24,000 nucleotides of DNA from an uncultured Acidobacteriota bacterium (GTDB lineage Bacteria; Acidobacteriota; Blastocatellia; Pyrinomonadales; Pyrinomonadaceae), in NCBI GenBank assembly GCA_963826255.1, contig CAWGWK010000001.1:1236687-1260686 (forward strand), read 5' to 3'. The notes below the pieces were generated by a model. That model was not told the DNA's origin. It did not search any database and worked only from the letters and a program-made list of their open reading frames with translations. Position numbers and translations under genes: made by a program. Below, piece by piece: positions 4,922-20,539 of this stretch. The stretch's first letter is position 1, and every line of letters starts with the position of its first letter.

Positions 4922-4995
4922 TGGCTGGGAGGCAGGGACTCGAACCCCGATAGCCAGATCCAGAGTCTGGAGTCCTACCATTGGACGACCTCCCA
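4922..4995 (-). tRNA. tRNA-Gln (anticodon CUG)
   Basis: The reverse complement is TGGGAGGTCGTCCAATGGTAGGACTCCAGACTCTGGATCTGGCTATCGGGGTTCGAGTCCCTGCCTCCCAGCCA. It folds as acceptor TGGGAGG/CCTCCCA, D arm GTCC-AATGGTA-GGAC, anticodon arm CCAGA-CTCTGGA-TCTGG (anticodon CTG) and T arm CGGGG-TTCGAGT-CCCTG. The discriminator is G and the CCA is encoded. U1-A72 and G73 are typical of bacterial tRNA-Gln. Confidence 0.92.
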
Positions 4996-6202: not shown

Positions 6203-6424
6203 GGCTAATCCTCCCCTCCGGTATGAAACGTTTGAATTATCCCGTCATTCTATATGGCGAAACTCGCAAATACATTTTGTGCAGCCCGTAAAAAACTAAT
6301 GCTTGAACTGGAGTGTGTTCAAGATGCACAATGGGGTCTGTTCTAGCGGCTAGAACGGCACACCTAAACGCAAACAAAGACAATTGCCTTTTATCTTCTT
6401 TTTCCGAACCCATACGGAGAGTCG

Positions 6425-6703
6425 ATGACTGAACACGACAAGGACGAGCAGCTTGCCCAATACCGGCTCAAACTCGAAGAGACTGCCGCCCTCGTAGCTC
6501 GTATTCGTCACGAGATTAACAATCCCCTTACCGGTGTGTTGGGCCAGGCCCAACTTTTATTGCGTGAAGAATTGAGCGAACGATCGCGGAAACGAGTCCA
6601 GACGATTGAAGATCTTGCACTGCGGTTGAGAGACGTTGTGGCCCAGTTACGTGAGGTGCAAAGACCGGGCGGCGACGGCGAGAGCGAACAGTCGGCTAGC
6701 TAG
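6425..6703 (+). CDS. stand-alone HisKA/DHp-domain protein (92 aa), no ATPase domain
   Basis: The H-box RIRHEINNPLTGVLGQAQLLL is embedded in two predicted long helices. SD GGAGAG lies 5 nt upstream of the ATG. The ORF ends 8 bp inside the convergent rSAM gene. Confidence 0.6.
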   Translation: MTEHDKDEQLAQYRLKLEETAALVARIRHEINNPLTGVLGQAQLLLREELSERSRKRVQTIEDLALRLRDVVAQLREVQRPGGDGESEQSAS

Positions 6704-7604
6704 TAAGCCGCTTCACTGATTCTTTCAACATCAAGCGCCGGCTGCTGATCGTCGCCATGTGAAAAGGGACCACACATCCGCAGCGATCGCAATCGGCGTT
6801 GTCGCCCATCATGCATTTTCCCTTTTGCTCGCCGGTTGGACCAAACGCGAACGCTTTCAAACGAAACTCACAATTGTCGGTAACTTTTTTCGCATTCCTG
6901 GATCTCATCAGCTCGAGCGTGGAGTCGAGCATGTTGATGTATCCCGGATACTGCTTCTTCAGCGAAAGAATCTGATCTATCAATTGATCACGTACAGGCC
7001 AGTCAAGCCATAGCACTTCGTTGAGCCCTGTCACTGGCGTGAAGAAGTCGAAGATGATCCCACCGCGTGCGATTGGTCCCCACTCCTTAACGAGATCTTC
7101 CACGCAGTCTTTAGTGATGCTCGTCAGCACGCAGGAGATCTGAATGTTCAACTCCTGATGAGCAACGACGTTCTGTTTTATCTTTTGATAGATACCCGGT
7201 GCACGCATGCGCGCGAAAGCTTCTTCAGTGCCGTCGATTGAGATGACCCAAGTGCAGTTGGGCCAGTTCGGCAGCTCCATCGTTCCGTTGGTAACGATGG
7301 TATTGTGTTTGAAGTACTTCCTGCCAACCTCGATCAGTTGCTTTCGGACCATGGGTTCGCCGCCAACCCACGTGCACAGCATCATGGGATGACCGGCAGC
7401 CTTCATTGCTTCGAGCTTCTCCAGCCACTTCTCGATCGAGAGTTCTTTTTCGTTATCGTGATCTTCCGCGAAGAAATAGCAGTGCTCACAACGCAGGTTG
7501 CAGCGGTTTGTGACGTCGATCGAGCCGACTGCAAACTTCGGCAGACCAAAGACGAATAGTTTGGTGATGTCGCGGAGCTTGTTAAGCTTTCGGCGTACGT
7601 TCAT
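6696..7604 (-). CDS. radical SAM protein (~302 aa) with a C-terminal Cys cluster
   Basis: It has IDVTNRCNLRCEHCYF (CxxxCxxC), a GGEP motif (WVGGEPMV), and the C-terminal KCMMGDNADCDRCGCVVPF. I chose the ATG at 7604. The open frame extends to a TTG at 7658, and neither start has a clear SD. Confidence 0.8.
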   Translation of the reverse strand: MNVRRKLNKLRDITKLFVFGLPKFAVGSIDVTNRCNLRCEHCYFFAEDHDNEKELSIEKWLEKLEAMKAAGHPMMLCTWVGGEPMVRKQLIEVGRKYFKHNTIVTNGTMELPNWPNCTWVISIDGTEEAFARMRAPGIYQKIKQNVVAHQELNIQISCVLTSITKDCVEDLVKEWGPIARGGIIFDFFTPVTGLNEVLWLDWPVRDQLIDQILSLKKQYPGYINMLDSTLELMRSRNAKKVTDNCEFRLKAFAFGPTGEQKGKCMMGDNADCDRCGCVVPFHMATISSRRLMLKESVKRLTS

Positions 7605-7701
7605 GCGGGAGTCATTATGCGGTGACGAGCAGTTTCCCGCAAAGGCGCAAAGACACAAAGAAGGCGCAAGATAGCTTAGCTTGGGTCACCACTGAAAATC
7701 G

Positions 7702-8265
7702 TTAGCTCTTAAGTGCCACCTTTTTCTCTTCATCAGTGTAGACCTTGATCTGGGTGCCGGGCTTGATAACCGCGTTTTTCCCTTTCTTCAAAAATCCTAA
7801 CGGACCAAAAAGAACGACCAGCGCGACTGTGGTCCCCGTCTTGTCATCGCCCTCTTTGCCTTTGCTGGAGCGCAGCTTGATCTTTTGATTATCCACTGTG
7901 GTGGAAGATTCCACGCGGATGCCAAGATTGCCACCCCTGCCCATCATTCCCGCTTTTTTTGCTTGAGCGACAACGCCCTTGACCAGGGTATCTTTGGCAA
8001 TGACAATTTGACCATCTATTTTTACGTCTTCCGCAACCTTGAAATTAAGCGGATCACCTTCAGCCGCCGTCTTACTGGTGATCTCATCGGTTGTAATGAC
8101 CGTGAATTCGGTGCCGTCCGGGATGACTTTCGTATTCTCGGTTTGGTGTTGCTGATCCTGTTTTCTCGTAGCTGCTGATAAGGAAGTGGGAGCAATGAGG
8201 CTGAGTAGTACCAGCATTATCACGACAGTCTGAAGCGGCTTGGGGGAATGGGTAGTTTTCTGCAT
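7702..8265 (-). CDS. secreted/periplasmic hypothetical protein (187 aa)
   Basis: SD AGGAGA lies 7 nt upstream. The signal peptide is PLQTVVIMLVLLSLIAPTSLSA-A. The mature part is beta-rich and Lys/Gly/Thr-rich. The gene sits between two rSAM genes on the same strand. Confidence 0.7.
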   Translation of the reverse strand: MQKTTHSPKPLQTVVIMLVLLSLIAPTSLSAATRKQDQQHQTENTKVIPDGTEFTVITTDEITSKTAAEGDPLNFKVAEDVKIDGQIVIAKDTLVKGVVAQAKKAGMMGRGGNLGIRVESSTTVDNQKIKLRSSKGKEGDDKTGTTVALVVLFGPLGFLKKGKNAVIKPGTQIKVYTDEEKKVALKS

Positions 8266-8345
8266 GGGTTTATCTCCTGAGAGTGGGTTAATAGTTTCCG
8301 CTCTGGGAAAGCAGCGGAGGGCGATAGGTGAGCGGTAAAACCGAA

Positions 8346-10337
8346 CTAGAACGACACCGTTTCTTCTTCAGGTGTCTCGACGAGATAAGGACTGACGAAT
8401 GCTGGTTTCTCTTCGGCGTCTTCTGCAAGCACGGCCTGGATGACCGGCAAGCTCAAAGAGTGTTTGGTAGTTTGCAGCGGAACCGGCTTACCGGCCGCGT
8501 ACACTTTATGACGGCCATGCTCTTCGTACCATTCAGCGAGATTGGCAGTCTTATGCATGTTCTCGATGATCTGCCGCCAGCCGACGCCGGTGTTGTAAGC
8601 GCAGAAGGAGATCTCGCCTTCCTGAGTGCCATAAGGAATCACGCACATCTCAGTGCGGCGAAAATCGTAATTGAAAAGATCCTGGAACCACATGCCTTCG
8701 ACGCAGAGCACGCGCCACATGTCGCCGGCATCGGAAGTCTTCTGGTCCATCCGAGCCATCCGAGCCATCCGATCGTTGCGATCGGAGTTTGAATTAGTAG
8801 ACGAAGGCTTGAACAGGTTGATGATCTGGGAAATCGGAAATCCCTGTGGCGCACGTTCGGCGTTGAAGTTTCGCATGATCGCCATGCCAAGCTGTGCGTA
8901 TGAGAGTTTCCGGCCACGTGCCGTGTCGGTAATCACTGCCACGTCTTTCATGAACTGTTCGTAGTCGAAGAACTCAAACAATGATTTGAATTCTCCAGTC
9001 TGCTTGTTCACGACCAGCAAGGTAAAGATGCCGCAGTTTGGATGGCAGTTACACGACGACCAGCCCCACGGCGCATCCGCGCCCTGCAACATGTCCATCA
9101 CGCTGGTGAAAGCAGAATAGGAAGAGAGCGGGAACCAGTCGCGCAGCGGTTGAATGCTGCCACCGAGTTGATTCTTGAGATCGTGAGTCATGCCCGCGAG
9201 CGTGTAACGCCACTTCTTGCGCAACTCGTCCGAGATATCTTCGTCGCGGCCAGTGAAAGAAACTGGTTGAAAGGCGATCGTCTGAACTTTGTCGATGTTC
9301 TTCGCGGCAAACTCGACGATTTGCCCGATACCATCGTTGTTTAAGTTGTTAACAATCGTGACGACGAGCGTCACCTTGATACCGGCAGCCGCGAGGTTCT
9401 CGATTGCACGCAACTTAACGTCGAACAGGTTACCAACGCCGCGATGCTTGTTCTTCTCTTCGCTCACGCCGTCAAACTGAAGATAGACGCCGTGTTGTCC
9501 GGCAGCCTTCGCAGCTTTACAAAACTCGAGATCTTCAGCGAAGCGAATGCCATTCGTCGCGGCGAGAATTCGATAAAAGCCGATCTTCTTCGCGTAAGCG
9601 ACAGCTTCGAGGTAGTACGGTGAAAGTGTCGGCTCACCGCCCGAGAAGAGAATGATTACTTGCCGGCGTGGTTTGAACGAAACCGCGCGATCGAGAATAG
9701 CTTTCGTGTCTTCGAAAGTCGGCTCGTGCACATAACCAACCTGGTTCGCATCCATGAAGCACGGATTGCACATCATGTTGCAACGGTTGGTCAGGTCAAC
9801 AGTCAAAACTGCGCCGCGTCCGAACTTGATATTCGAAGTTCCATGACGGTGCACGTCTTTGTCTTCGGCGGCACGAAAGTCTCGACCAAAGAAGAGTGAC
9901 TCGATGCGTTCGAGAAACGCAGGATCAGTTGACATCACGTCTTCGAACTGTCCGTGCTTCGGACAATCCTTCCGCATCACGACCTGACCGTTGTCTTCAA
10001 GAATCTGTGCTTTGATTTCACCTGGATGCTCGTGCATCAACGTCTCGAGCGGGATCTCGCCGGAAATCACAGCGTTACGGACTTCTTTTACGCAGGTTGG
10101 ACAAAGACTGTCGGTTTCGCGCGGGAAACCAAGTGGCGGAGCACTGCGCTCGTACGATTTAAGCAACGGGCCGGGCGCCCAGTTCGGACGTATAGCTTCA
10201 CCTTCAGGAAGGCGTTGATTAATTGACTGGAATGCTTTCCAGGCGACATCTGAGAGACCGGAGATGAGCCGGGATCCTTTGACTCCCGACAGCTTGCTCT
10301 TTTCAGATTCCCCCCGGCGAAACTGGTCACTAAACAA
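8346..10337 (-). CDS. large radical SAM enzyme (663 aa), Tes/GDGT-MAS-like (class D rSAM) tetraether/membrane-spanning lipid synthase candidate
   Basis: The rSAM cluster is TNRCNMMCNPCF (Cys codons around 9759-9782). The N-terminus has SLCPTC...KDCPKHGQFED (CxxC...CxxH, rubredoxin-like). Further Cys motifs are SSCNCHPNCG and MCVIPYGTQEGEISFCAYN. The start is a TTG, the first start after an in-frame TGA, with GAGGAGGAG ~11 nt upstream. Confidence 0.8.
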   Translation of the reverse strand: MFSDQFRRGESEKSKLSGVKGSRLISGLSDVAWKAFQSINQRLPEGEAIRPNWAPGPLLKSYERSAPPLGFPRETDSLCPTCVKEVRNAVISGEIPLETLMHEHPGEIKAQILEDNGQVVMRKDCPKHGQFEDVMSTDPAFLERIESLFFGRDFRAAEDKDVHRHGTSNIKFGRGAVLTVDLTNRCNMMCNPCFMDANQVGYVHEPTFEDTKAILDRAVSFKPRRQVIILFSGGEPTLSPYYLEAVAYAKKIGFYRILAATNGIRFAEDLEFCKAAKAAGQHGVYLQFDGVSEEKNKHRGVGNLFDVKLRAIENLAAAGIKVTLVVTIVNNLNNDGIGQIVEFAAKNIDKVQTIAFQPVSFTGRDEDISDELRKKWRYTLAGMTHDLKNQLGGSIQPLRDWFPLSSYSAFTSVMDMLQGADAPWGWSSCNCHPNCGIFTLLVVNKQTGEFKSLFEFFDYEQFMKDVAVITDTARGRKLSYAQLGMAIMRNFNAERAPQGFPISQIINLFKPSSTNSNSDRNDRMARMARMDQKTSDAGDMWRVLCVEGMWFQDLFNYDFRRTEMCVIPYGTQEGEISFCAYNTGVGWRQIIENMHKTANLAEWYEEHGRHKVYAAGKPVPLQTTKHSLSLPVIQAVLAEDAEEKPAFVSPYLVETPEEETVSF

Positions 10338-10382
10338 CGGCTTTTCGTCTCCTCCTCAGTGAAACGCCCAGAACAGTCGAGC

Positions 10383-10411
10383 ATCATAGTGGGCCAAACC
10401 AGCAAAGGCAA
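10383..10411 (-). promoter_or_regulatory. sigma70-like promoter for the rSAM operon
   Basis: The minus strand reads TTGCCT-17 nt-TATGAT, ~45 nt upstream of the TTG start at 10337. Confidence 0.35.
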
Positions 10412-10440
10412 GACACGATTTGCACGCAAAGCCTTTTTTT

Positions 10441-10660
10441 AGCCTGCGGAGCAGGCGCAAGCATAAAGCCTGGGGCGTAAGCCCCAGGTCAAAGCGCGAC
10501 AAGTTTCAAGCCCGCGAATGCGGGCGATAGAACAAATGCGGCAAAACGCGAACAATTTCAGCACCCACCACTGACGCCCACTTCGCGGGCTCGAATTCCA
10601 TTGCTTCCAGTTCCTGGGGCTTACGCCCCAGGCTATATGCTTGCGCCTGCTCCGCAGGCT
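10441..10660. repeat. 220-bp palindromic (MITE/REP-like) element with 48-bp terminal inverted repeats
   Basis: Segment 10441-10488 (AGCCTGCGGAGCAGGCGCAAGCATAAAGCCTGGGGCGTAAGCCCCAGG) is the reverse complement of 10613-10660 with a single mismatch. Each arm contains its own hairpin, CCTGGGGC-GTAA-GCCCCAGG. The core holds another hairpin, GCCCGC-GAAT-GCGGGC. Confidence 0.9.
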
Positions 10661-10683
10661 AAAAGCAAATGAAAGCCGAATCA

Positions 10684-10712
10684 TTGACATAGTATGTATG
10701 GAGGCGTATAAG
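10684..10712 (+). promoter_or_regulatory. sigma70-like promoter for the CHAT/SIR2/STAND operon
   Basis: TTGACA (10684-10689), a 17-nt spacer, then TATAAG (10707-10712). This leaves a ~190-nt leader before the ATG at 10904. Confidence 0.4.
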
Positions 10713-10903
10713 CACGGTGTTTCCTGCGATTTTTCACGCGAACTTGTGCGCCTGCCACCCAGGCGCACGGTTCGGCCGGAATGTTCGATCCTTCTAATTT
10801 CAAAAGGCCTTAGTCGCCACCAGTTAGTTCTCAACACCGTCTCATGCAGGCTTGTCTTGCCTGGTCGTGAGTTTATTCCTCCTACGATCCCGGGAGTTAA
10901 CCA

Positions 10904-13900
10904 ATGTTCGACGAACGCGCTTTTATTTCCCAGGTAGAAAGATCCAATCCCGACGAATTAGCGAAACTGCTTGTTCGGCCCACTCTCGAAGAAGAGAAAG
11001 CCCTTCGCGCGCATTTAGGTGACGAGCGTTACCAGCGGATGCATAGCATGGCGTTGAGGCGGAAGGTCAGCCGCAGCGTCATTGAAAAACCACGAGGAAA
11101 TGTCGTCGTCATACACGGCATCATGGGCGCTGAATTAAGTATCAGCAGCAACGGCCGCGCCGGAGATCTGACGTGGGTCAATGCCTTTCGCATCCTCCGC
11201 GGTTGGCTCGATCGTTTGCGACTGACCGACGATGGCCGCTCGGAATTCAATTCAAAATTCACCGTGACCGCGTCGGGCACTATGAAGCGCTACTACGGCG
11301 AAATACTCCTGGCCCTGTCGGAAAATTGGAACGTTAAGGATTTCTATTTCGACTGGCGAAAGGATCTCGAACTTGCCGCAGATTCACTAAACACGATGCT
11401 CGGTACCTGGCTCGACAATAAGAAGCCGGTACATATCGTCGCTCACTCAATGGGCGGTCTCGTCGCGCGCACTTTTATCCAGAAATATCCTGAGCGCTGG
11501 AAAACGATGTTGGATGAAAAGGGGGAAGACGGTGGCAGACTAATCATGCTCGGTACGCCGAATTATGGCTCGTTCGCCATTCCGCAGGTCATTACGGGCG
11601 TGGAAGGGTTAGTGCGAAAACTGGCAAGGCTCGATTTCCGACATAGTCGCCAGGAACTGCTCGAGACGTTCAATTCCTTTGTGGGCTCGTACCAGATGCT
11701 TCCTTCACCTGAGGTGATGAGCAATATCGAACGTCTTTACGATGCGGGCACCTACAGCAAATTCAATGTCACAGTCTCGCAGCAACATCTGAAAAGAGCC
11801 AGAGATCACCACGAGTGGTTGAAAGATGCTGTTGATCTGGATCGAATGATTTACGTGGCCGGCTACGATCAGCCTACCTACTCGGATATCAGCGACTGGG
11901 ACAGACTGGACGGCACGGAAGGATACGCGATGACCGTCGATGGCGATGGCCGTGTGCCACACACGCTCGCTTTGCTGAAGACCTCTGAAGGAGTTCAGAT
12001 TCCGACGTACTACATTCGTGAAAACCACGGCAATCTCTCGTCCAATGGAAGAATCCTGGCGGCACTCGATGAACTGCTGAAAACAGGTAAAACGGATGCT
12101 CTGCTTCCAAAGTTACCAGAGGACCGGGCGTTAAAGGCAAAGAGCCAGAAAGAATTAAGAGAAGAATACGAGGCCGATCTAAAAGCCGAGGAGACCACAC
12201 TCGCGATCTCGCTCGGTCGCATGAGCTCGAGAAGCATTCCGTTTATGCGAGCCCTGGACGAAGAATGTTCCGAACAGCGCGGAGTTAACACCTTAGCTCC
12301 GCCTGTTATCAGTCCTGAGGAACGAAAGGTTGAAGAAGCGATCACTCGGGGATTTCTACCTTTCCGCGGAGAAGGCAAAGCCACCGACGACTCGGTGGAA
12401 GTTGATGAAAATCTGGAACCCGCAAAAATAGAGATCGGACTCATGTTCGGCGGCATTCAGAGCATTGATTACGACAATGTGCTCAGCGATGAGCAGCACC
12501 CTGTTGATTGCATCTCGGTGGGCCATTACATCGGCGTTCAGCCACAACGGGCCGAGCTGGCGCTCGACGAAGCAATCAGCAAGGCTTTAGTTAAGGAAGA
12601 AGAACTCGGCAACCAGCAAGACACAAAACAAGTCGGCAACCAGGAAAGCTCAGAAGAAATCGGCAAACTTGACCTCATCCTCACTCAATACACGGAACGC
12701 GGAATCATCTACGGCCAGTTGGGCCAACCTTTTTTAATGCCCGATCCGCGCACTGGTCGCGAGTCTAAAACCGAACGTTTGATCGCAGTCGCGGGTATGA
12801 ACGAGCCCGGGCGTTTTGGCATACCGGAGTTGACCGTGCTTGCCAGGGAATTGTGCTGGGCTCTCGGGCGCTTGAATAAACTACACCTTGCTACCGTACT
12901 AATCGGCAGTGGAGAAGGGAATCTGGCATTACGCGATGCCGTCTCCGCATGGTTAAGCGGAATTCGACGTGCAGTGGCTGGTTCAAAATTTGACAGCCGC
13001 AGCGGCAGAAGATTAAAGCGAGTAACTTTCGTCGAGCACGATCCTGGCAAAGTAATTCAATTAAATAACATCATTGCTACTCAGCAGGCACAGTTAGAGA
13101 AGCAGAACTTCACCATCGTTTACCAGAAACTCACCCCCGCCCAAGTAGAAGAATTGAAGGTGAAAGCTTATGAAAAAGCCAGGGAAGACTTGGAGAAGAA
13201 TTGGAAGAAAGAACTGGAGGGGAACAGTTCCAATCCCAACGCGATCCCTTCCCGTGTCACGCTGAGTCTCGATCCAGACAAAAATACCTATCGCTTTGGT
13301 GCGATTACCGAAAACGCGTCGATTCCGGAACGCGATACGGTTATCGATCCTAATCTCGTTTGGACAGCTAACGATGAACTGGCAGGTGAGCAGTGGCCCC
13401 CGGTGCAGTTGGAACGCGGACGGTTTCTCGAAGGACTGTTGATGCCTGCCGACTTGCGAAAGCAACTTTACGGCGCAGCACCATTGGTGATGATGCTGGA
13501 TTCTACGACGGCCCGCATTCATTGGGAGATGGTGGCCCAACCTTCACTCGATTCTTCTCCGGTTCGACGCAGTGCCGCGTTAACTAAAGGATTCAAGTAC
13601 GAAGATGATTTTCTGGGTACTTGTCGAGGGTTAACGCGGCAATTGCGCACGACGTTCGCTCCGCCACCCGAACCACCACCGCCACCTCTGAGTATTTTGC
13701 GGATCCTGATCGTCGCCGATCCTGCCGAGGATGCACATCTGCCCGGCGCCGAAGAAGAGGCAGTTTTGGTTGCAGACCTCTTTGAAAGCTACAACCCTAC
13801 TGACGACATTAAGCGCACACGTGTGGAGGTGAAGCGTCTCTTTGGACCAATCGACGCAACTCGCACCAACGTGCTGCGTGAGTTGATGCTCCGGCGCTAC

Positions 13901-14506
13901 GACATTTTGCACTTTGCCGGCCACTGCGTCTTCCAATGGAACGGAGATCCAAGTCTTTCAGGATGGATTTTCAACGTGAAGCGCAAGGAGTTGTTGAGTG
14001 CAAATGAGCTCAACCGGATCGATCGGATTCCAAAGTTTGTTTTTTCAAATGCCTGTGAATCGGGAATAACGCCGGATCGCGCGCGCGATCGAGACGACCG
14101 GCTCGCTCCGAGCTTTGCGGAATCATTCTTCAATCGCGGAGTAGCAAACTTTGTCTGCACGGCATGGCCGGTGGACGATGTGGCCGCCCGTGTTTTTGCA
14201 ATAACGCTTTATTCGCATCTGTTAGGGCTCAAAAACGACTCAGATAAAACCGTCTCACGTCGTACCGGTGGTGCGGTGGCAATGCATGAAGCGATGAGAG
14301 AAGCCCGGCTCGCCATCGCCCGCACACTTAACGGAAGAACCACCTGGGGAGCCTACCAGCATTATGGCAACCCGTATTTTCGTCTCTTTTATGACGAGTC
14401 TGAACAGTGTGGTCCTGATGCGAGTGAGAATTCTAAAGAGGCCACGGGATTAGAACCTAAAGAGCGTTCAGCAGAGGAAACAGCGCCTCAGGCTGCCGCC
14501 AAATAG
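10904..14506 (+). CDS. 1200-aa fusion protein: N-terminal alpha/beta-hydrolase (lipase/LCAT/PGAP1-like), a ~500-aa unassigned central region, and a C-terminal CHAT caspase-like protease
   Basis: SD GGGAG lies 7 nt upstream. The hydrolase motifs are VVVIHGIMG, the nucleophile elbow HIVAHSMGG (Ser182, 11447-11449), LGTPNYGS, VDGDGRVPH and ENHGNL. The CHAT motifs are ILRILIVADP, ILHFAGHCVF (His1007) and FVFSNACESG (Cys1051, 14054-14056). Confidence 0.85.
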   Translation: MFDERAFISQVERSNPDELAKLLVRPTLEEEKALRAHLGDERYQRMHSMALRRKVSRSVIEKPRGNVVVIHGIMGAELSISSNGRAGDLTWVNAFRILRGWLDRLRLTDDGRSEFNSKFTVTASGTMKRYYGEILLALSENWNVKDFYFDWRKDLELAADSLNTMLGTWLDNKKPVHIVAHSMGGLVARTFIQKYPERWKTMLDEKGEDGGRLIMLGTPNYGSFAIPQVITGVEGLVRKLARLDFRHSRQELLETFNSFVGSYQMLPSPEVMSNIERLYDAGTYSKFNVTVSQQHLKRARDHHEWLKDAVDLDRMIYVAGYDQPTYSDISDWDRLDGTEGYAMTVDGDGRVPHTLALLKTSEGVQIPTYYIRENHGNLSSNGRILAALDELLKTGKTDALLPKLPEDRALKAKSQKELREEYEADLKAEETTLAISLGRMSSRSIPFMRALDEECSEQRGVNTLAPPVISPEERKVEEAITRGFLPFRGEGKATDDSVEVDENLEPAKIEIGLMFGGIQSIDYDNVLSDEQHPVDCISVGHYIGVQPQRAELALDEAISKALVKEEELGNQQDTKQVGNQESSEEIGKLDLILTQYTERGIIYGQLGQPFLMPDPRTGRESKTERLIAVAGMNEPGRFGIPELTVLARELCWALGRLNKLHLATVLIGSGEGNLALRDAVSAWLSGIRRAVAGSKFDSRSGRRLKRVTFVEHDPGKVIQLNNIIATQQAQLEKQNFTIVYQKLTPAQVEELKVKAYEKAREDLEKNWKKELEGNSSNPNAIPSRVTLSLDPDKNTYRFGAITENASIPERDTVIDPNLVWTANDELAGEQWPPVQLERGRFLEGLLMPADLRKQLYGAAPLVMMLDSTTARIHWEMVAQPSLDSSPVRRSAALTKGFKYEDDFLGTCRGLTRQLRTTFAPPPEPPPPPLSILRILIVADPAEDAHLPGAEEEAVLVADLFESYNPTDDIKRTRVEVKRLFGPIDATRTNVLRELMLRRYDILHFAGHCVFQWNGDPSLSGWIFNVKRKELLSANELNRIDRIPKFVFSNACESGITPDRARDRDDRLAPSFAESFFNRGVANFVCTAWPVDDVAARVFAITLYSHLLGLKNDSDKTVSRRTGGAVAMHEAMREARLAIARTLNGRTTWGAYQHYGNPYFRLFYDESEQCGPDASENSKEATGLEPKERSAEETAPQAAAK

Positions 14507-14548
14507 CAACGCAAGAATCGCCGATCATTTTCAAGAGGGGAGCCGATC

Positions 14549-15469
14549 ATGTCGCAAGTGTCAACCGAAACCGAAGTACCGATGCCGCGTACTCTCCAAA
14601 GAAATGACTGGACGCTGCTCTTAAAGAGGATTCGCGAGGGAAGATGCACGCCTTTTCTCGGCGCTGGAGCTTCCTATGGAACGTTGCCGCTGGGTGCGTC
14701 GATTGCCGAAGACTGGGCCAAGGAATTCGGTTATCCACTCGAAGACTCCGACGATCTGATCAAAGTGTCGCAGTTCGTCGCGGTCGAGGTTGAAGACGCG
14801 ATGTACCCAAAGGAAGAACTCGCTGCCCGGTTCCGAAAGGCTGGGCGCCCTGACTTCAGTTCGCCCACCGAGCCGCATCGATTCCTGGCTGAGTTACCGC
14901 TCCCGGTCTACATCACGACGAACTATGACGATTTCATGGTCCAGGCGTTGCGCGACCAGGGCAAGAAACCGGAACAGGAGATCTGTCGCTGGAACAGTCA
15001 GCTCTACAGTCTGCCGTCGGTGCTTGATCGGTTGGATTACGTGCCCAGTGAAAAGACACCGCTGGTTTTTCATCTTCATGGTCATGCCGGAATTCCGGAA
15101 TCACTGGTGTTGACTGAAGACGACTATCTCGATTTCCTGATGGCGATATCCAAGAAAGAAAACAAACTCCTGCCGCCGCGAGTCCAGGAAGCGATGGCAA
15201 ACGCGTCGTTGCTATTCATCGGCTACCGCATTGCCGACTGGAATTTTCGTGTGCTGTTTCGCAGTGTCGTCACTTCGCTTGAAGCAGGTCAGAAGCGAAA
15301 GCATGTGTCAGTGCAGATCCTCCCGATCGGCAATGTAAGTGACAACATCCGGAAGATGAAGGTGCTGAGCTACCTCGACAAGTACTATCAGGAACTCAAT
15401 ACGCGCGTTTACTGGGGCAAGAGCGACGAGTTCATGTCTGAACTGAGAAACATTTGGGAGGTGCTCTGA
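14549..15469 (+). CDS. SIR2_2-family (sirtuin-like, probable NAD+-consuming) protein, 306 aa
   Basis: SD AGAGGGGA is present upstream. The motifs are PFLGAGASYG (Rossmann GAGxS), YITTNYDDF (Asn125), VFHLHGH (His177), LVLTEDDYL and LLFIGYRIADWNF. Confidence 0.8.
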   Translation: MSQVSTETEVPMPRTLQRNDWTLLLKRIREGRCTPFLGAGASYGTLPLGASIAEDWAKEFGYPLEDSDDLIKVSQFVAVEVEDAMYPKEELAARFRKAGRPDFSSPTEPHRFLAELPLPVYITTNYDDFMVQALRDQGKKPEQEICRWNSQLYSLPSVLDRLDYVPSEKTPLVFHLHGHAGIPESLVLTEDDYLDFLMAISKKENKLLPPRVQEAMANASLLFIGYRIADWNFRVLFRSVVTSLEAGQKRKHVSVQILPIGNVSDNIRKMKVLSYLDKYYQELNTRVYWGKSDEFMSELRNIWEVL

Positions 15470-15470
15470 C

Positions 15471-16712
15471 ATGACTGTTCAAAACCTCGAGCTGTATGTT
15501 GGACCACGCCCGTATGAAGAAAGCAACGCGTCCATCTTCTTTGGACGCGAGCGCGAAGCCCGCGATCTGCTGTCACTCGTGATCGCCAATCAATTGCTTT
15601 TGATCTACGCGCCGTCGGGCGCGGGCAAAACCTCACTCATCAATGCCCGCCTTGTTCCGATGCTCGGCCACGTGAAGGATCCGGCGTTGGCGGAACAGCT
15701 TGGACCAGGCAAGGGTTTTGAGGTTTTGCCAATCGCGCGTGTCAGCGGTCTCGTTCCGGAAACGATGGATCTGGATGCGATTCCAAACTCGAACATCTTT
15801 GTCTTCAATACCCTCGTCAGTTGGCGAAAGAAAGACACCGGAACGCCGTCGGCGCAACAACGCAAACTTGCCGAAAGAGAACTAATCGGAAAGCGGCTTT
15901 GCGACTACCTCGAGGAAACGCGACCCGTCGCGGTCCAATCAGTAGAGGGAGACGATGAAGAAGGCGAGCCGTTGTCCCCGCGCGTCGTGATCTTCGATCA
16001 GTTTGAAGAGATCTTTACTCGCCACTACGAGCGCTGGCAGGACCGTGAAGGATTCTTTGAGCAGATCACGGATGCGCTGAAAGGTGGTCCACTGACGTTG
16101 AGACGTTGCGACATCCGCCGTCCTGCCGCGCTGATGAGCCGGCTGGTAAGAGGCGCCAATTCTGTTTGCCTTGCGCTGCGGGAACGTCTCCCTGACGGTG
16201 TTAACCGGCTGCTCAAGGACGATAAAAAGACGGTTGATGAGCGTCTGGAAGTAATCGTGTCTGAGTTGAACACGATTTTGAAGGGTGAAAGCCTCTACGA
16301 CGAGGAGACATTTGCCGGGATCAATTTGCGTGACGAGACGATGCAATCGCTTCAGCAAAAGCGCAAATCACGCAACTTCCTTGCTTCAAACCGATTGCTT
16401 CTCGAAGACGCTTTTCCAGATGAGATTTACCGGCGCGCAGCAGGAGACCGTGCCTTGCGAGTGGTCTTTTCCATGCGCGAGGACTACATCGCCGAGCTCG
16501 ATCCTTACGCACACCTGTTGCCCGACAGGCTCGGTACGCGTTATCGCCTGGATCGCCTGCGTCGCGATGCCGCGCTGGCCGCGGTGAAGAGTCCACTTCA
16601 GTTCACAACTGTGAGTTTCGCTCCGGGTGTAGCTGAGCGCCTGGTCGATAGCCTGTTACAGACTCCAGTGAAAGTCGCGACGCCGGTTACAACTGGTGAG
16701 GAGATGTTGTAG
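15471..16712 (+). CDS. STAND-type P-loop NTPase, N-terminal fragment (413 aa) of a split gene
   Basis: The ATG is 1 nt after the SIR2 stop, with SD GGGAGG 9 nt upstream. The motifs are FFGREREARDL, Walker A IYAPSGAGKTSL (Lys53), Walker B RVVIFDQFEE (Asp176) and VFSMREDYI. The ORF ends EEML* four codons inside an inserted element. Confidence 0.8.
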   Translation: MTVQNLELYVGPRPYEESNASIFFGREREARDLLSLVIANQLLLIYAPSGAGKTSLINARLVPMLGHVKDPALAEQLGPGKGFEVLPIARVSGLVPETMDLDAIPNSNIFVFNTLVSWRKKDTGTPSAQQRKLAERELIGKRLCDYLEETRPVAVQSVEGDDEEGEPLSPRVVIFDQFEEIFTRHYERWQDREGFFEQITDALKGGPLTLRRCDIRRPAALMSRLVRGANSVCLALRERLPDGVNRLLKDDKKTVDERLEVIVSELNTILKGESLYDEETFAGINLRDETMQSLQQKRKSRNFLASNRLLLEDAFPDEIYRRAAGDRALRVVFSMREDYIAELDPYAHLLPDRLGTRYRLDRLRRDAALAAVKSPLQFTTVSFAPGVAERLVDSLLQTPVKVATPVTTGEEML

Positions 16713-16892
16713 CCACTGGTAGTGCCTGGTCTTTCTCTGCGTAATCTCTGCGGTCCTGGGCGCCTCTGCGTGAATGTATTCCTAAGTCCTAATAACCGCA
16801 GAGGCGCCGAGGACCGCAGAGATTACGCAGAGAAGATCTCAAGTTTTGATTTATGCACGGGGAGGCCCGAATATGAGTGATAAGACCTGGAT
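16700..16892. mobile_element. ~193-bp non-autonomous insertion (MITE-like) interrupting the STAND NTPase gene
   Basis: It is flanked by the 9-bp direct repeat AACTGGTGA (16691-16699 and 16893-16901). It contains a 37-bp-stem palindrome. Deleting 202 bp joins the two ORFs in frame. The exact boundaries are uncertain and no transposase is encoded. Confidence 0.45.
16734..16833. repeat. long palindrome (37-nt arms, 26-nt loop)
   Basis: Segment 16734-16770 (TCTCTGCGTAATCTCTGCGGTCCTGGGCGCCTCTGCG) matches the reverse complement of 16797-16833 at 36 of 37 positions. Confidence 0.9.
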
Positions 16893-19689
16893 AACTGGTG
16901 AATTCGTTGAAACAGTGCAGTTGCAGGTAGTCTGCCGGACATTGATTAGTAAGCTCGCGCCAAATGCCACCGAGATTTCGATGGAGCATTTGGAAGCTTA
17001 CGGCAGTCTCGATAAAGCGCTGCAAGTGTTTTACGAAGATTCAATCCGTGAAGTGGTTGAGAAAACAAGGGAAGTACTGCAGCGCAAAGGCAAGAGCGAG
17101 ATCAAAGAAGGAGTCTTGCGCAATTGGTTCGAAAAGAAACTTATTACTCAAGCACACACTCGCGGTCTGATTTATCGCGGCGCCACTCACACGGAAGGTC
17201 TCATCAACGAAGCTGTCAACCTATTGGACCAGGCACACATCATTCGTGAAGAACGACGCGGCAGTGGTCGCTGGTACGAGTTGAGTCACGATCGCTTTGT
17301 CGATCCTATCCTGACCTCAAACAAAGAGTGGATGCTGCAATACTCCGGCGCTGCCAAGGTACGTCAATGGCTGGAAGAACGGGCCACACGTTGGAACCAA
17401 ACTCAGGATGAGACAGCGCTGCTCAGCGAAAACGAACTCAAAGAAGCGGAAAGTTGGGTAGCGAGTGCTGAAGCCTCCGAGCTCGGCTACGATCGATCGG
17501 TAACAAATCTGATTCAGGCCAGCCGCACCCATATAAATAACAAGAAGGTGCAAAGGGAATTCGAGATCGAGAGTGCCAACAAGCTGGCGCGATCGGCGCG
17601 GCGTTTTAAGTGGGCATCGATTGGGCTTGCTGTGATGTTCGTTCTCGCCTTGACCACTACCTTAATTGCTTCGGTCCAATGGAGAAAGGCGTACGATAAT
17701 CTCGAGTTAGCAGAAGAACGGGAACAAGAGGCACAGAGACTGCAAAAACAAGCGTCACAGCAGGCCGAACGCGAGTTATGGGCGAGGGTGGCTGCCATAC
17801 AGGCGGCCAAGGAAGCAGATGCAGCCAGACAAGAGGCAGCAAATCGTGCCGATGAAGCGGAGAAAGCCAAAAAAGAAGCGGTGGAAGCCCAACGAGCAGC
17901 GGAAAAGGCCAGGGGTGAATTACGAGATGCGCTGAAGAAAGCTGAAGAACGCGCGCGCGAAGCTGAGCGAGCGCGAAAGACCGATCAACTGTCTCGCGAA
18001 GCCTTCCGTCTCTCGAGAAGACCGGAGAGTCAACAGGACGCTGTCGAACAATTCAATCGCGCGATTGATGTCTACAAAGAGACCGGCGACCGCGACGCGC
18101 AGGCTGACAGCTATCTGAATCAAGGTCAGGTTTACAAAGACATGGGTGAAGTGGAGCGGGCCGAAGACGCATTCAATAAAGCGTTGCAACTCTATCGACA
18201 CACACCCGCGGACCCGCAAAAACAAGCCAGCACCCTAAACAACATTGGCATTATTTATACTTCGTCCGGTGCGTCGGATCCCCTCACGGGGGAACGTAAC
18301 GAGGAGGCTTTGGCAACTGCAAAGACGAAGTTCTACAGTGCCCTCACCATGTATCGCGCCCTTCAAGACCTGTTTGGTGAAGCTGCAACTTTGACGAACA
18401 TCGGTGATGCCCAATTGGCGATGAAATCCAAGGATGATCGCAGGCGGGCGTCGGATTTTTACGAGCGAGCCCTGGGTATCTACACATACTCCGTGATGAA
18501 TAATTCTGCAAATCAGGAAAAACACTTAAGGGCCCTTCTTGGAATGTTCATCTCATTGGGCAACAAGCAGGCTCTGCTGGCTGAGGCTAATGAGGACACG
18601 TTTTCGTTAGATGATCGTATTGAAATGTATAAGGAAGCCCTCGATCTTTACACGCAGCTCAACGATAAGCGTGGCATGGCGATCGCCAATACCAAAATCG
18701 GAGCAGCAACTGAAGAGGCTTTGCAAAGCGCGGCAACCGAGAACGTTGAACGCTATGAGAAGCTCGTATTGGATAGTTACAAGAAAGCCGCGGATCTTTA
18801 CAAAGAGTCGCATGATGCAATCGGAGAGGCTGGCGCGCACATAAGTTTAGGGCACTATTACCAGACGCTCGCGGATCCGGAAAAGCGGAGCAAAGCGGTA
18901 GGTGAGTACAGCCTGGCGGCGACTATTTACCGGAGTATCGACGATCGTGCCGGACAGATTCGTGCTCACAAGGCTCTCTACGATTTCTATGCGACGTCCT
19001 CCGAGGCGGAGCACAAAGCAAAAGCTGTTGCATCTTTGGTCCTCATGAACGACCTCTACCGAGAGCTCGAAAATGTAAGGGGACAGAGTGACACGTATCT
19101 CAAACTCGGCGCGCTTCACGAGAATCTTCAATTTCGCGATAAGGCAGAAACCGCCTTCGACGAAGCCTTGAAGCTTTATCGAACTTCGGGTGATAAGAAA
19201 ACAGAAGCAGACGTCCTCGGAGAGATTGGCAGAATATATGCTAAGTCGAAAGATAAAGCGGGTGTGGAGTTAGCGGTACAACGACTCAACCAGGCCGCTG
19301 ATATTTACCGCGAAACCAAGAGCACAGAGGCGTTGGCCGCCACCTATAACAAGCTCGCTGAACTTCACAGCCAAAGTCCGTGGAGGTTGGCTTTCCCGGC
19401 CGACGAAGCGACCCAATGGTACTTGAACGCTGTTAAGTACTATGAGATGGAAGCAGACACGTATCGTGGTAAAGGGTCGAAATCCGACCCGGTGAAGGTG
19501 GCCAAAGTGCTGCGATTCATTGGGTCAGTGTACCGCGATCGGTTGGACGATAAAGCCAAAGCATTGGAGTCGTTGAATCAAGCGCTGAAGCTCTACGAAG
19601 AGGCGCGAAATCCTGCGGGCATCAGAGCGGTTAAGATTGAGATCGCAAACCTGGCGAAGCAAAGCGGCGCTGAGACTTCAAAACCATAA
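16873..19689 (+). CDS. STAND NTPase C-terminal fragment: helical/winged-helix region, hydrophobic helix, coiled coil, TPR array (938 aa from the ATG)
   Basis: SD GGAGG lies 7 nt upstream of the ATG at 16873; the open frame begins at a TTG at 16846. EFVETVQLQVVC continues the NTPase module. The hydrophobic helix is WASIGLAVMFVLALTTTLIASV. A ~100-aa E/A/R/K coiled coil follows. At least seven TPR-like motifs are visible (AEDAFNKALQLYR, ASDFYERALGIYT, IEMYKEALDLYTQ, LDSYKKAADLYKE, AETAFDEALKLYR, VQRLNQAADIYRE, LESLNQALKLYEE). Confidence 0.8.
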   Translation: MSDKTWITGEFVETVQLQVVCRTLISKLAPNATEISMEHLEAYGSLDKALQVFYEDSIREVVEKTREVLQRKGKSEIKEGVLRNWFEKKLITQAHTRGLIYRGATHTEGLINEAVNLLDQAHIIREERRGSGRWYELSHDRFVDPILTSNKEWMLQYSGAAKVRQWLEERATRWNQTQDETALLSENELKEAESWVASAEASELGYDRSVTNLIQASRTHINNKKVQREFEIESANKLARSARRFKWASIGLAVMFVLALTTTLIASVQWRKAYDNLELAEEREQEAQRLQKQASQQAERELWARVAAIQAAKEADAARQEAANRADEAEKAKKEAVEAQRAAEKARGELRDALKKAEERAREAERARKTDQLSREAFRLSRRPESQQDAVEQFNRAIDVYKETGDRDAQADSYLNQGQVYKDMGEVERAEDAFNKALQLYRHTPADPQKQASTLNNIGIIYTSSGASDPLTGERNEEALATAKTKFYSALTMYRALQDLFGEAATLTNIGDAQLAMKSKDDRRRASDFYERALGIYTYSVMNNSANQEKHLRALLGMFISLGNKQALLAEANEDTFSLDDRIEMYKEALDLYTQLNDKRGMAIANTKIGAATEEALQSAATENVERYEKLVLDSYKKAADLYKESHDAIGEAGAHISLGHYYQTLADPEKRSKAVGEYSLAATIYRSIDDRAGQIRAHKALYDFYATSSEAEHKAKAVASLVLMNDLYRELENVRGQSDTYLKLGALHENLQFRDKAETAFDEALKLYRTSGDKKTEADVLGEIGRIYAKSKDKAGVELAVQRLNQAADIYRETKSTEALAATYNKLAELHSQSPWRLAFPADEATQWYLNAVKYYEMEADTYRGKGSKSDPVKVAKVLRFIGSVYRDRLDDKAKALESLNQALKLYEEARNPAGIRAVKIEIANLAKQSGAETSKP

Positions 19690-19714
19690 CAGCCAAAGAT
19701 GCGTGCTATCATCG

Positions 19715-19737
19715 GGAGCGCTTTAGGCGCTCCTTTT
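19715..19737 (+). terminator. rho-independent terminator of the CHAT/SIR2/STAND operon
   Basis: GGAGCGC-TTTAG-GCGCTCC is followed by TTTT, 26 nt after the stop at 19689. The T-tract runs directly into the lpxA start codon. Confidence 0.7.
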
Positions 19738-19738
19738 G

Positions 19739-20539
19739 ATGTCTATCCATCCTACAGCCGTCATCGGCAAGCGTGTCGCGATCTCTGAGAACGTCGTAAT
19801 CAACGCGTATGCGGTTGTCGAGGACGACGTAGAGATCGGTCCGGATTGCGAGATCGGATCACACGCGGTCATCAAGCAGTTTACAAAAATTGGCGCACGC
19901 AACCGGATCTTCGAGCATGCCGTGATCGGCGGAGAGCCGCAGGACGTAAAGTTCCACCGTGAGCGAAGCTATCTCGAGATCGGTGACGACAATCTGATCC
20001 GAGAGTTTTGCACGTTCCATCGCGCCAGCGGCGAAGACGAAATAACTAAAATCGGTTCGCGCAACTTTTTCATGGTGGGAGTACACATCGCGCACAACTG
20101 CCGTATCGGCGACGACAATATCTTCGCGAACGAAGTTGCGCTCGCGGGACACATCATCGTGGAGGACCACGTGTTTCTCTCCAACAATGTCGGCGCGCAT
20201 CAGTTTGTGCGGATGGGTCGTTACGCGATGGTTGGCGGGAAGTCGAAGATAGTGCAGGATGTGTTGCCGTTCTTTATCACTGACGGCAACCCGGCGCGCG
20301 TTCGTGGAGTGAATAGCGTAGGTTTGCGGCGTGCCGGTTTCTCGAGCGAAGCAAGACGTGCGTTGAAAGATGCTTACCGGATGCTTTTTAGGTCCGCGAC
20401 GCCTGTTGAAGAAGTTCTGGTCCAACTGGAGCAGGCGGACGATGAAAACGTTTCGCATCTGGTGAGTTTCATTCGCGGATCGAAGCGAGGTTTTACGAGA
20501 GCGGCTACGGACACCACGGATGACACAGATCAGAGTTGA
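19739..20539 (+). CDS. lpxA: acyl-ACP--UDP-N-acetylglucosamine O-acyltransferase
   Basis: MSIHPTAVIG is followed by left-handed beta-helix hexapeptide repeats. The length is ~266 aa. The conserved C-terminal helical region reads GLRRAGFSSEARRALKDAYRMLF. An alternative TTG start lies at 19736. Confidence 0.9.
   Translation: MSIHPTAVIGKRVAISENVVINAYAVVEDDVEIGPDCEIGSHAVIKQFTKIGARNRIFEHAVIGGEPQDVKFHRERSYLEIGDDNLIREFCTFHRASGEDEITKIGSRNFFMVGVHIAHNCRIGDDNIFANEVALAGHIIVEDHVFLSNNVGAHQFVRMGRYAMVGGKSKIVQDVLPFFITDGNPARVRGVNSVGLRRAGFSSEARRALKDAYRMLFRSATPVEEVLVQLEQADDENVSHLVSFIRGSKRGFTRAATDTTDDTDQS

Follow-up and report, generated by a model that had tools for sequence, protein, structure and literature searches.

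A putative composite operon of two separable conflict modules, SIR2-nSTAND1 and phospholipase-macro-CHAT, in a variable slot of Pyrinomonadaceae

Four genes between a radical-SAM gene and lpxA

We analysed a 24,000-nucleotide stretch of DNA (the window) from an uncultured Acidobacteriota bacterium of the family Pyrinomonadaceae (contig CAWGWK010000001.1), concentrating on a block of four genes, g1 to g4, to which an earlier note made from the sequence had drawn attention. Coordinates are those of the whole stretch, and the loci compared are labelled L001-L173. The block consists of four co-directional open reading frames (ORFs) on the + strand with intergenic gaps of 42, 1 and 160 bp, just as that note had described. 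Upstream of it lies a radical-SAM gene, whose product is a relative of Tes, the tetraether lipid synthase, and downstream lie lpxA, lpxD and lpxB. The four genes were as follows.

10904-14506, + strand: g1, 1200 residues; N-terminal helical segment, LCAT/LPLA2-like phospholipase, macro-fold domain and CHAT protease
14549-15469, + strand: g2, 306 residues; stand-alone SIR2_2 domain, predicted nicotinamide adenine dinucleotide (NAD+) hydrolase (NADase) effector of the STAND protein
15471-16712, + strand: g3, 413 residues; N-terminal piece of the STAND protein (nSTAND1) with Walker A and Walker B
16873-19689, + strand: g4, 938 residues; C-terminal piece of the STAND protein, with the rest of the nucleotide-binding oligomerisation domain (NOD), a helical module, a hydrophobic helix, a charged helical stretch and a TPR array

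Pfam profile searches bore out every domain read earlier from short motifs (lipase, CHAT, SIR2, P-loop STAND and TPR). The match of g2 to SIR2_2 had an E value of 1.2e-27 (97.2 bits against a cutoff of 24.5), and its N125, D127 and H177 were invariant in 22 sequences. In g3, the match to nSTAND1 (PF20703; E = 1.6e-26, 94.3 bits against a cutoff of 27.1) starts at residue 9, with Walker A at S49-S55 (GAGKTS, K53) and Walker B at D176-E180 (DQFEE), and by profile threshold and Walker motifs g3 is an nSTAND1-type STAND NTPase. The TPR_12 profile matched g4 (E = 1.6e-19), together with related TPR profiles. Catalytic residues singled out in the earlier note were also conserved, S182, H1007 and C1051 of g1 and N125 and H177 of g2 being invariant in alignments, and K53 being present in g3.

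SIR2 and nSTAND1 form one module and g1 another

Whether the four genes belong together was examined from both sides. On the g1 side, profile searches covered 80 loci, of which 61 had enough flanking sequence to be evaluated. On the SIR2 side, 38 loci anchored on the g2 family with >1 kb upstream were informative for g1, and 68 with at least 300 bp downstream for nSTAND1. An nSTAND1 gene lay directly 3' of SIR2 in 68/68 of these, and intact two-gene SIR2 and STAND forms occurred in L085, L086 and L168. SIR2 and nSTAND1 are thus an obligate and very widespread two-gene module. The co-occurrence of all orthologues, put forward earlier as a test of a single system, held for this pair but extended to g1 in only 16 of the 61 evaluable g1 loci (~26%), while the other 45 lacked SIR2 and STAND. 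No g1 was found in any of the 38 SIR2-anchored loci with sufficient upstream sequence. These counts do not agree with the earlier proposal of one sensor that commands three effectors.

The same separation was seen within the slot between the radical-SAM gene and lpxA. Here g1 occurred by itself in L002, L003, L004, L005, L006, L009 and L014, and SIR2 with STAND by themselves in L081-84, L171 and L172. Both modules were present in the Pyrinomonadaceae slots of the window, L001, L173, L007, L024, L054, L076 and L078, and the four-gene layout of L001 and L173 is identical to that of the window. The SIR2 protein of L081-84 is 90% identical to g2. Synonymous divergence (dS) of lpxA from the window was 0.47 for L001, 0.65 for L081 and 1.4-1.7 for L002 and L003, which keep g1 without SIR2 and STAND. 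Since L081 is nearer to the window by lpxA than L002 and L003 are, g1 was lost in the L081 lineage, with SIR2 and STAND kept under selection. In comparison with L173, dS was 2.0 for g1 and 0.84-1.05 for g2-g4, and this twofold difference indicates that g1 and the cassette have different histories. The ratio of nonsynonymous to synonymous divergence (dN/dS) was 0.09-0.17 for g1 and ~0.05 for g2; all genes of the block, both STAND halves included, are under purifying selection.

Two lineages of SIR2-STAND pairs, A (the type found in the window) and B, are ~25% identical, and each is found with and without g1. We considered type B as a lineage dedicated to g1 and rejected this, as type-B pairs also occur without g1 in L168, L170, L171 and L172. 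Among related loci, tandem-duplicated SIR2 and STAND modules (L078, L113, L157, L166) or two different SIR2 genes before one STAND gene (L112, L124, L131, L146, L148, L150, L161, L162) recur, and an ORF of 437-472 residues with no Pfam match lies between SIR2 and STAND in the type-B loci L054 (14770-16185) and L076 (14649-15959).

Genes beside g1 homologues were of conflict type, and included SIR2 with STAND (16 loci), C14 caspases (8 loci), TIR and other STAND genes. SIR2 and STAND follow g1 in at least four phyla, with examples from Acidobacteriota, Verrucomicrobiota, Rhodothermales and Solirubrobacterales, and most of the intervening gaps measure 3-44 bp. In 7 loci, the gene of a stand-alone Peptidase_C14 caspase (~275 residues) lies directly upstream of g1 and co-directional with it, and in L052 (14555-15397) one lies downstream. 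The C14 loci include L013 (9136-9960), L016, L019, L022, L026 and L039, the last also with a cyclase gene as a neighbour of g1; the pairing was seen in Rubrobacteraceae, Thermomicrobiales, Chloroflexia and Binatia. In L047 (Planctomycetaceae, 5480-14779), a 1242-residue STAND protein and the g1 homologue are followed 22 bp downstream by a TIR_2 protein, which thus takes the position of SIR2 beside g1. A separate observation concerns L057, L058, L059, L064, L073, L074, L075 and L076, where the SIR2 frame opens right after the g1 stop and in the same frame (gaps of 3-13 bp where genes were called). Such junctions may stem from common ancestry, or from a fusion or read-through that once existed or that occurs conditionally.

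A conserved promoter heads the slot

The features that bound the block are given below.

10684-10712, + strand: sigma-70-type promoter at the head of the variable slot; TTGACA (10684-10689), 17-nt spacer, TATAAG (10707-10712), then C
19714-19734, + strand: terminator-like hairpin followed by a T-run, abutting the lpxA start

The promoter had already been recognised in the earlier note. Each of 25 related loci contained one match to TTGACA-N16-18-TATAAGC, on the + strand every time and immediately 5' of the gene that opens the slot, which is g1, or SIR2 where g1 is absent. The spacer and flanking bases diverge among these loci, and by our estimate chance alone would give ~0.2 matches in the ~1.9 Mb searched. 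At the level of sequence, this conservation is a good phylogenetic footprint of what is very probably a real promoter. An automatic promoter scan overlooked the site at 10684, as it demands a T at position 6 of the -10 element, where the site has G.

A terminator had likewise been proposed at the end of the block, and the hairpin at 19714-19734 corresponds to it. Only 5 nt separate its end from the lpxA ATG (19739), so the ribosome-binding site of lpxA must fall within the hairpin. The transcript of the block probably extends into lpxA. The distance from the last gene of the slot to lpxA in related loci is just 7-160 bp (junctions of L002, L003, L024 and L081). Genes lpxA to lpxD may be co-transcribed from the slot promoter, which would place the conflict genes inside the leader of a lipid A operon.

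The g1 protein contains a predicted macro-fold domain between phospholipase and protease

Three domains were delineated in g1 downstream of the helical segment.

11081-12103, + strand: alpha/beta-hydrolase, LCAT / lysosomal phospholipase A2 type, g1 residues ~60-400; nucleophile S182 (AHSMGG), D348, H375
12422-13216, + strand: predicted macro-fold domain, g1 residues ~507-771; glycine-rich loop I667 G668 G670 G672 N673
13418-14371, + strand: CHAT caspase-like protease domain, g1 residues 839-1156; H1007, C1051

The Pfam LCAT profile matched g1 above its gathering threshold (E = 2e-6, 27.7 bits against 21), and S182, D348 and H375 were invariant across 75 aligned g1-family sequences. In the AlphaFold2 model, this domain had a predicted local distance difference test score (pLDDT) of 94.1, and its best Foldseek matches in the PDB were LPLA2 (4x92/4x97), LCAT and the type VI secretion system phospholipase Tle4, with E values down to 7.6e-11. 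By profile, fold and Ser-Asp-His triad it is therefore an LCAT/LPLA2-type alpha/beta-hydrolase. The CHAT profile was matched over positions 4-289 of 289 (E = 2.6e-25, 89.9 bits against a cutoff of 24), and H1007 and C1051 were invariant in alignments of g1 homologues.

Residues 401-840 showed no Pfam match, Macro families included, even at E = 10. Similarly, a profile of the whole g1 family searched against PDB sequences gave no notable match in the middle region, the strongest match being a marginal one to the lipase domain. The AlphaFold2 model of residues ~507-771 (pLDDT 85.5) matched macroH2A, DarG, YmdB, MacroD2 and PARP9 in the PDB with E values of 1e-7 to 1e-5, and dozens of macrodomain matches were obtained at a Foldseek probability of 1.00 and a target template modelling score of ~0.65-0.77. 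The macro-like N-domain of M17 aminopeptidases scored equally well. The IGSGEGN loop of g1 was invariant in the g1-family alignment. On the model, then, the central domain of g1 has a macro fold, which the earlier note had overlooked, and which may bind a ligand of the ADP-ribose type. A degenerate second CHAT domain was considered for the same region and rejected (hhalign probability 0.1%; the structure gives a macro fold). The macro-fold domain of g1 is restricted to the g1 family.

A search for g1 gave 1842 homologues, the family forms ~410 clusters at 50% identity, and relatives occur in 166 species genomes from Acidobacteriota, Verrucomicrobiota, Planctomycetota, Myxococcota, Gemmatimonadota, Chloroflexota, Actinomycetota and Proteobacteria. 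Its tree mostly follows taxonomy. Variants include macro-CHAT alone and forms with extra phospholipase D (PLD) or subtilase domains. One protein of the representative library, P0364 (1633 residues), is a fusion of an nSTAND1 NTPase (residues 13-432) with an entire g1-like protein in which the catalytic motifs are replaced, the lipase nucleophile by AHEIGG and the CHAT cysteine by NAVEST. P0364 is a Rosetta-stone link between the two modules, though with catalytic sites that look dead.

The STAND protein is membrane-anchored by prediction and encoded in two pieces

Two further features lie within or beside g4.

16713-16872, + strand: g3-g4 spacer; perfect hairpin with 38-nt arms (16733-16834), then a GGGGAGG ribosome-binding site and the g4 ATG
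17620-17676, + strand: predicted transmembrane helix of g4, residues 250-268, IGLAVMFVLALTTTLIASV; Kyte-Doolittle 19-mer score 2.29

The hydrophobic helix, noticed earlier, was confirmed at these residues. Exactly one strongly hydrophobic helix is present between the NOD and the TPR or WD40 repeats in 55/57 SIR2-linked nSTAND1 proteins (the STAND genes compared were those of L007-L166), which implies, as far as the protein sequences go, that these are a membrane-anchored STAND family. Arg and Lys residues on the N-terminal side of the g4 helix suggest that the TPRs may be extracytoplasmic, and the TPR sensor may consequently face the periplasm. A further peculiarity of g3 is an insert of ~125 residues between Walker B and the MREDY strand (residues ~205-330, 16083-16460), which among aligned STAND proteins is confined to the window clade and L085.

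Genes 3 and 4 had been taken to encode one STAND protein, and together they do align with intact nSTAND1 homologues across the split. The break falls in the linker just before the GEFVEPVQLQVVC motif, and g4 aligns to the part of the intact proteins that follows GEFVEPVQLQVVC. The split is common to six lineages (L001, L081-84, L088, L089, L090 and L173). The split loci agree in the new N-terminus of g4, MSDKTWITGEFVETVQLQVVC, with its MSDKTW start, in the stop and in the GGGGAGG ribosome-binding site. The core of the spacer varies or is missing; the spacer measures 23 bp in L081, and in L089 and L090 the two ORFs overlap, by ATGA and by 11 nt, respectively. Long near-perfect hairpins in the spacer differ by lineage (window 16733-16834, L001 9731-9857, L088 6337-6440). 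That of the window folds as RNA at -91 kcal/mol, and neither this hairpin nor the upstream inverted-repeat element was found again in the related-locus DNA searched. The hairpins may be inserts resembling repetitive extragenic palindromes, or intercistronic elements that affect expression or stability.

Could the STAND gene be a pseudogene broken by a small mobile insertion, which would leave the SIR2-STAND module inactive? The spacer has a long hairpin, a 9-bp direct repeat, AACTGGTGA, is present at 16691-16699 and 16893-16901, and deletion in silico of 16700-16901 (202 bp) gives a single ORF of 1338 residues. A recent insertion resembling a miniature inverted-repeat transposable element (MITE), with a 9-bp target duplication, is nonetheless ruled out as the cause of the split by its sharing among six lineages with conserved stop, ribosome-binding site and start, by the insert-free overlapping ORFs of L089 and L090, and by selection (dN/dS of 0.12 for g3 and 0.14-0.17 for g4, without internal stops, similar to the 0.09-0.11 of lpxA). 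As a recent disruption the pseudogene reading is already refuted, and we assign it a negligible probability. Because the split is shared, both halves are selected and the break lies in a linker, the STAND protein of the window clade is a stable two-polypeptide protein, and the alignments indicate an old, selected two-gene arrangement. Removal of the supposed insertion before cloning, as advised earlier, is therefore unwarranted.

Flanking genes and elements

The block had been regarded as an inserted island between lipid genes. A variable slot is indeed present between lipid genes, but in base composition the block is like its flanks. The radical-SAM gene (8346-10337, - strand) encodes a homologue of the archaeal tetraether (glycerol dialkyl glycerol tetraether) lipid synthase Tes with an HMPTM zinc ribbon. 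Its Tes match of 311 bits is under the equivalog cutoff of 450. Among Pyrinomonadaceae the gene is conserved next to this slot, and it merits attention with regard to membrane-spanning lipids of bacteria. A tRNA gene at 4925-4995 (- strand; Rfam 60.9 bits) lies ~6 kb upstream of the block and is thus not adjacent to the variable slot, so that it offers no obvious integration site.

Between the radical-SAM gene and the promoter is a 228-bp element (10437-10664) with 52-nt terminal inverted repeats and a 124-nt core. The inverted repeats are two copies of the Rfam motif Acido-Lenti-1 (RF01687), at 10613-10660 (+ strand, 37.9 bits) and 10441-10488 (- strand, 34.7 bits). None of 172 related loci had a copy of the element. 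It has the look of a MITE-like insertion and suggests that the Acido-Lenti-1 'sRNA' motif can be the end of a mobile element.

Relation to described systems

In Avs5, SIR2, NOD and sensor form one fused protein (EfAvs5, PMC11897194). The g2-g3-g4 genes resemble it in coupling a STAND NTPase with a C-terminal repeat sensor to a SIR2 NADase, and by analogy NAD+ depletion and abortive infection would be expected. The window differs in that its SIR2 is a separate 306-residue ORF and not an N-terminal fusion (it is separate too in 68/68 related loci), in that the NTPase belongs to the nSTAND1 clade with NOD and sensor on two further ORFs, and in the conserved hydrophobic helix between NOD and repeats. 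No Avs model of PADLOC, with Avs5 (AVAST type 5) in view, matched g1-g4.

Conflict systems of nSTAND1 proteins with SIR2, TIR or caspase/peptidase effectors have been described (Kaur et al. 2021, PMC8195603). In the excerpts of that paper, SIR2 and TIR are effectors of a related TPR-bearing system and peptidases stand alongside nSTAND1; g3, which exceeds the PF20703 threshold, and the repeat sensor of the window conform to these descriptions. The effectors in the excerpted systems are fused or coupled through effector-associated domains (EADs), whereas the window couples them by operon only, and neither the membrane helix nor the split figures in the excerpts. EAD-coupled systems (Kaur 2020/2021) have the same adaptor on the effector and on the NTPase protein. 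In the window, comparison of all four proteins by BLASTP and hhalign revealed no shared adaptor, EAD or Death-like, between g1 and g2, g3 or g4. In NTP-dependent ternary systems, a caspase-superfamily protease always occurs with an alpha/beta-hydrolase, and joint action was proposed (Kaur et al. 2020, PMC7159879). In the window, by contrast, hydrolase and protease are fused in a single protein, separated by a macro-fold domain, and there are no vWA-MoxR or VMAP components.

The macro and CHAT domains of g1 also invite comparison with Thoeris. Type II has a Macro-domain effector that senses His-ADP-ribose (His-ADPR), and type IV a caspase-like protease activated by N7-cADPR, so that by analogy g1 would be a macro sensor or caspase-like executioner downstream of an NAD-cleaving enzyme. 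Type IV combines TIR with a caspase-like effector. In the window, no TIR or SLOG was found among the ORFs scanned, the candidate signal generator would be SIR2, and TIR follows a g1 homologue in L047 only. Macro and CHAT are moreover in one protein with a phospholipase, any ligand binding being putative. Type I pairs a SIR2-SLOG ThsA with a TIR ThsB, and the PADLOC ThsA profile aligned with g2 over positions 14-219 of 478.

In the type III-B CRISPR (clustered regularly interspaced short palindromic repeats) cascade from SAVED-CHAT to PCaspase, a ligand-sensor domain is likewise fused to CHAT, and C14 genes lie beside g1 homologues in the 8 loci mentioned above. The window differs in having no CRISPR context or caspase gene, and its sensor fold is macro, not SAVED. 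Nor does it resemble type III-E Craspase (gRAMP with TPR-CHAT): g1 had no TPR match, its neighbours are radical-SAM, SIR2 and lpx genes, and a repeat search of 10300-20000 found no CRISPR array. Two self-sufficient systems in one operon, Pycsar and type IV Thoeris, can synergise (PMC13069673). The block may be a comparable composite, of other components, and any synergy is suggested by this analogy.

The earlier claim of an undescribed system stands in part. Hidden Markov models of PADLOC assigned no named system, with no match for g1, only the SIR2 part of ThsA for g2, a weak mad8 match for g3 and generic TPR for g4. In the literature searched we found no pair of SIR2 in trans with a membrane-helix nSTAND1, no selected split STAND and no phospholipase-macro-CHAT architecture. 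What is already known at the domain level, to judge from the excerpted sources, is nSTAND1 with SIR2, TIR or peptidase effectors, and the pairing of hydrolase and caspase.

Discussion

In our view the four genes probably form a composite operon that occupies a variable slot of Pyrinomonadaceae (Acidobacteriota), and in which two separable conflict modules, each working alone, share one conserved promoter. Gene content, conservation, separability, selection and folds come from the data, and the role in defence, the steps of activation and any cross-talk are inferred. Module A would comprise g2-g3-g4, that is SIR2 with nSTAND1, with the P-loop core on g3, and on g4 the remainder of the NOD, the membrane helix, a coiled coil and the TPRs. 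The TPR end would recognise an invader- or damage-derived ligand, followed by NTP-dependent oligomerisation of g3 with g4. The oligomer would switch on the co-translated SIR2, with NAD+ cleavage and growth stop. With moderate confidence, and by analogy, we liken the logic of this module to that of Avs5, with the effector in trans. Module B would be g1, a self-contained effector with its protease and lipase under the control of the macro domain or of induced proximity; once ungated, these would damage proteins and membrane. Where adjacent, the modules would be co-expressed and may plausibly cooperate, perhaps via an ADP-ribose-type product of SIR2.

Several observations weigh against the independence of the modules or against the defence role that we infer for them. 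Their adjacency, with 16 of 61 evaluable g1 loci, is far above chance. Together with the nSTAND1-g1 fusion P0364, this non-random adjacency means that full independence probably understates the functional link. Vertical inheritance of g1 in synteny with lipid genes could also fit a non-immune role, the window is without phage or mobile-element genes, and neither PADLOC nor NCBIfam gave a system-level call (NCBIfam had nothing for g1-g3).

The obligate single system envisaged in the earlier note, with one STAND sensor set over lipase, protease and NADase, would account for co-directional genes with small gaps behind a single promoter, for the repetition of the layout in L001 and L173, and for the nSTAND1-lipase-macro-CHAT fusion in P0364. 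We judge it very unlikely, for variants without either part persist in the same slot under purifying selection, the reverse census gave 0/38, dS of g1 is discordant with that of g2-g4, and no EAD-type segment common to g1 and any of g2, g3 or g4 was detectable. Sequence comparison across loci already contradicts it. A similarly low probability attaches to g1 being a housekeeping or stress enzyme of the envelope, for lipid remodelling or regulated proteolysis, that came to lie beside a defence cassette by chance. Its largely taxonomic tree, its stable synteny with the Tes-like radical-SAM gene and lpxA, lpxD and lpxB across Pyrinomonadaceae, the flank-like base composition and the lack of a PADLOC match for g1 are what such an enzyme would show. 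Its patchy distribution across phyla, the variable conflict-type neighbours (SIR2, TIR, STAND and C14 caspase), the toxin-like PLD and subtilase domains fused in variants, the loss of g1 in the L081 lineage and the known hydrolase-caspase pairing of conflict systems argue otherwise.

More attractive, though in our view still unlikely, is a facultative cascade in which STAND-activated SIR2 turns NAD+ into a product (ADP-ribose or a derivative) whose binding to the g1 macro domain unleashes CHAT and phospholipase. In this scheme, sensors of the NADase type would use module B as a plug-in executioner, and elsewhere a neighbouring C14 caspase would be unleashed. The conserved glycine-rich loop of the macro fold is consistent with this, as are the recurrence of NAD-processing genes beside g1 homologues (SIR2 in 16 loci, TIR just downstream in L047) and the tight g1-SIR2 gaps. 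The C14 genes that adjoin g1, seven upstream and that of L052 downstream, recall the activation of PCaspase by SAVED-CHAT, and Thoeris provides precedents both for sensing of His-ADPR by macro domains (type II) and for a ligand-activated caspase-like effector (type IV). On the other hand, 45/61 g1 loci lack a neighbouring NADase, and g1 is almost always missing beside type-A SIR2-STAND (0/38). The failure of the g1 middle region to match Pfam Macro even at E = 10, and the presence among the top fold matches of the N-domain of M17 aminopeptidases, which does not bind ADP-ribose, speak against this cascade. Characterised SIR2 effectors to date work via NAD+ depletion rather than signalling, and the P0364 fusion suggests oligomerisation, and not a ligand, as activator.

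A sirtuin-initiated second-messenger pathway, from membrane-anchored STAND to SIR2, to an NAD+-derived product, to the macro domain of g1 and on to proteolysis and lipolysis, is a speculative and rather improbable extension. Here the STAND protein would respond to a cue from an invader or from the envelope, and g1 would kill the cell. If true, it would be a TIR-independent analogue of Thoeris, with lipase-macro-CHAT as a portable executioner for NADase-based immunity, and in other genomes the neighbouring C14 caspase would fire too.

The new anatomy consists of the predicted central macro-fold domain of g1 and the conserved single hydrophobic helix of the STAND family. Pairs of SIR2 and nSTAND1 number in the thousands and constitute a large uncharacterised family, whose conserved membrane helix makes it a possible bacterial NLR-like receptor (nucleotide-binding, leucine-rich-repeat type) with a repeat sensor outside the cytoplasm. 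Phospholipase-macro-CHAT is a second large uncharacterised family, in which the idea of a ligand-gated protease is open to direct test, given the predicted macro fold and the neighbouring SIR2, TIR and caspase genes. The split STAND protein, apparently stable over long evolutionary time, would be a natural system for studying how NOD and sensor pieces assemble.

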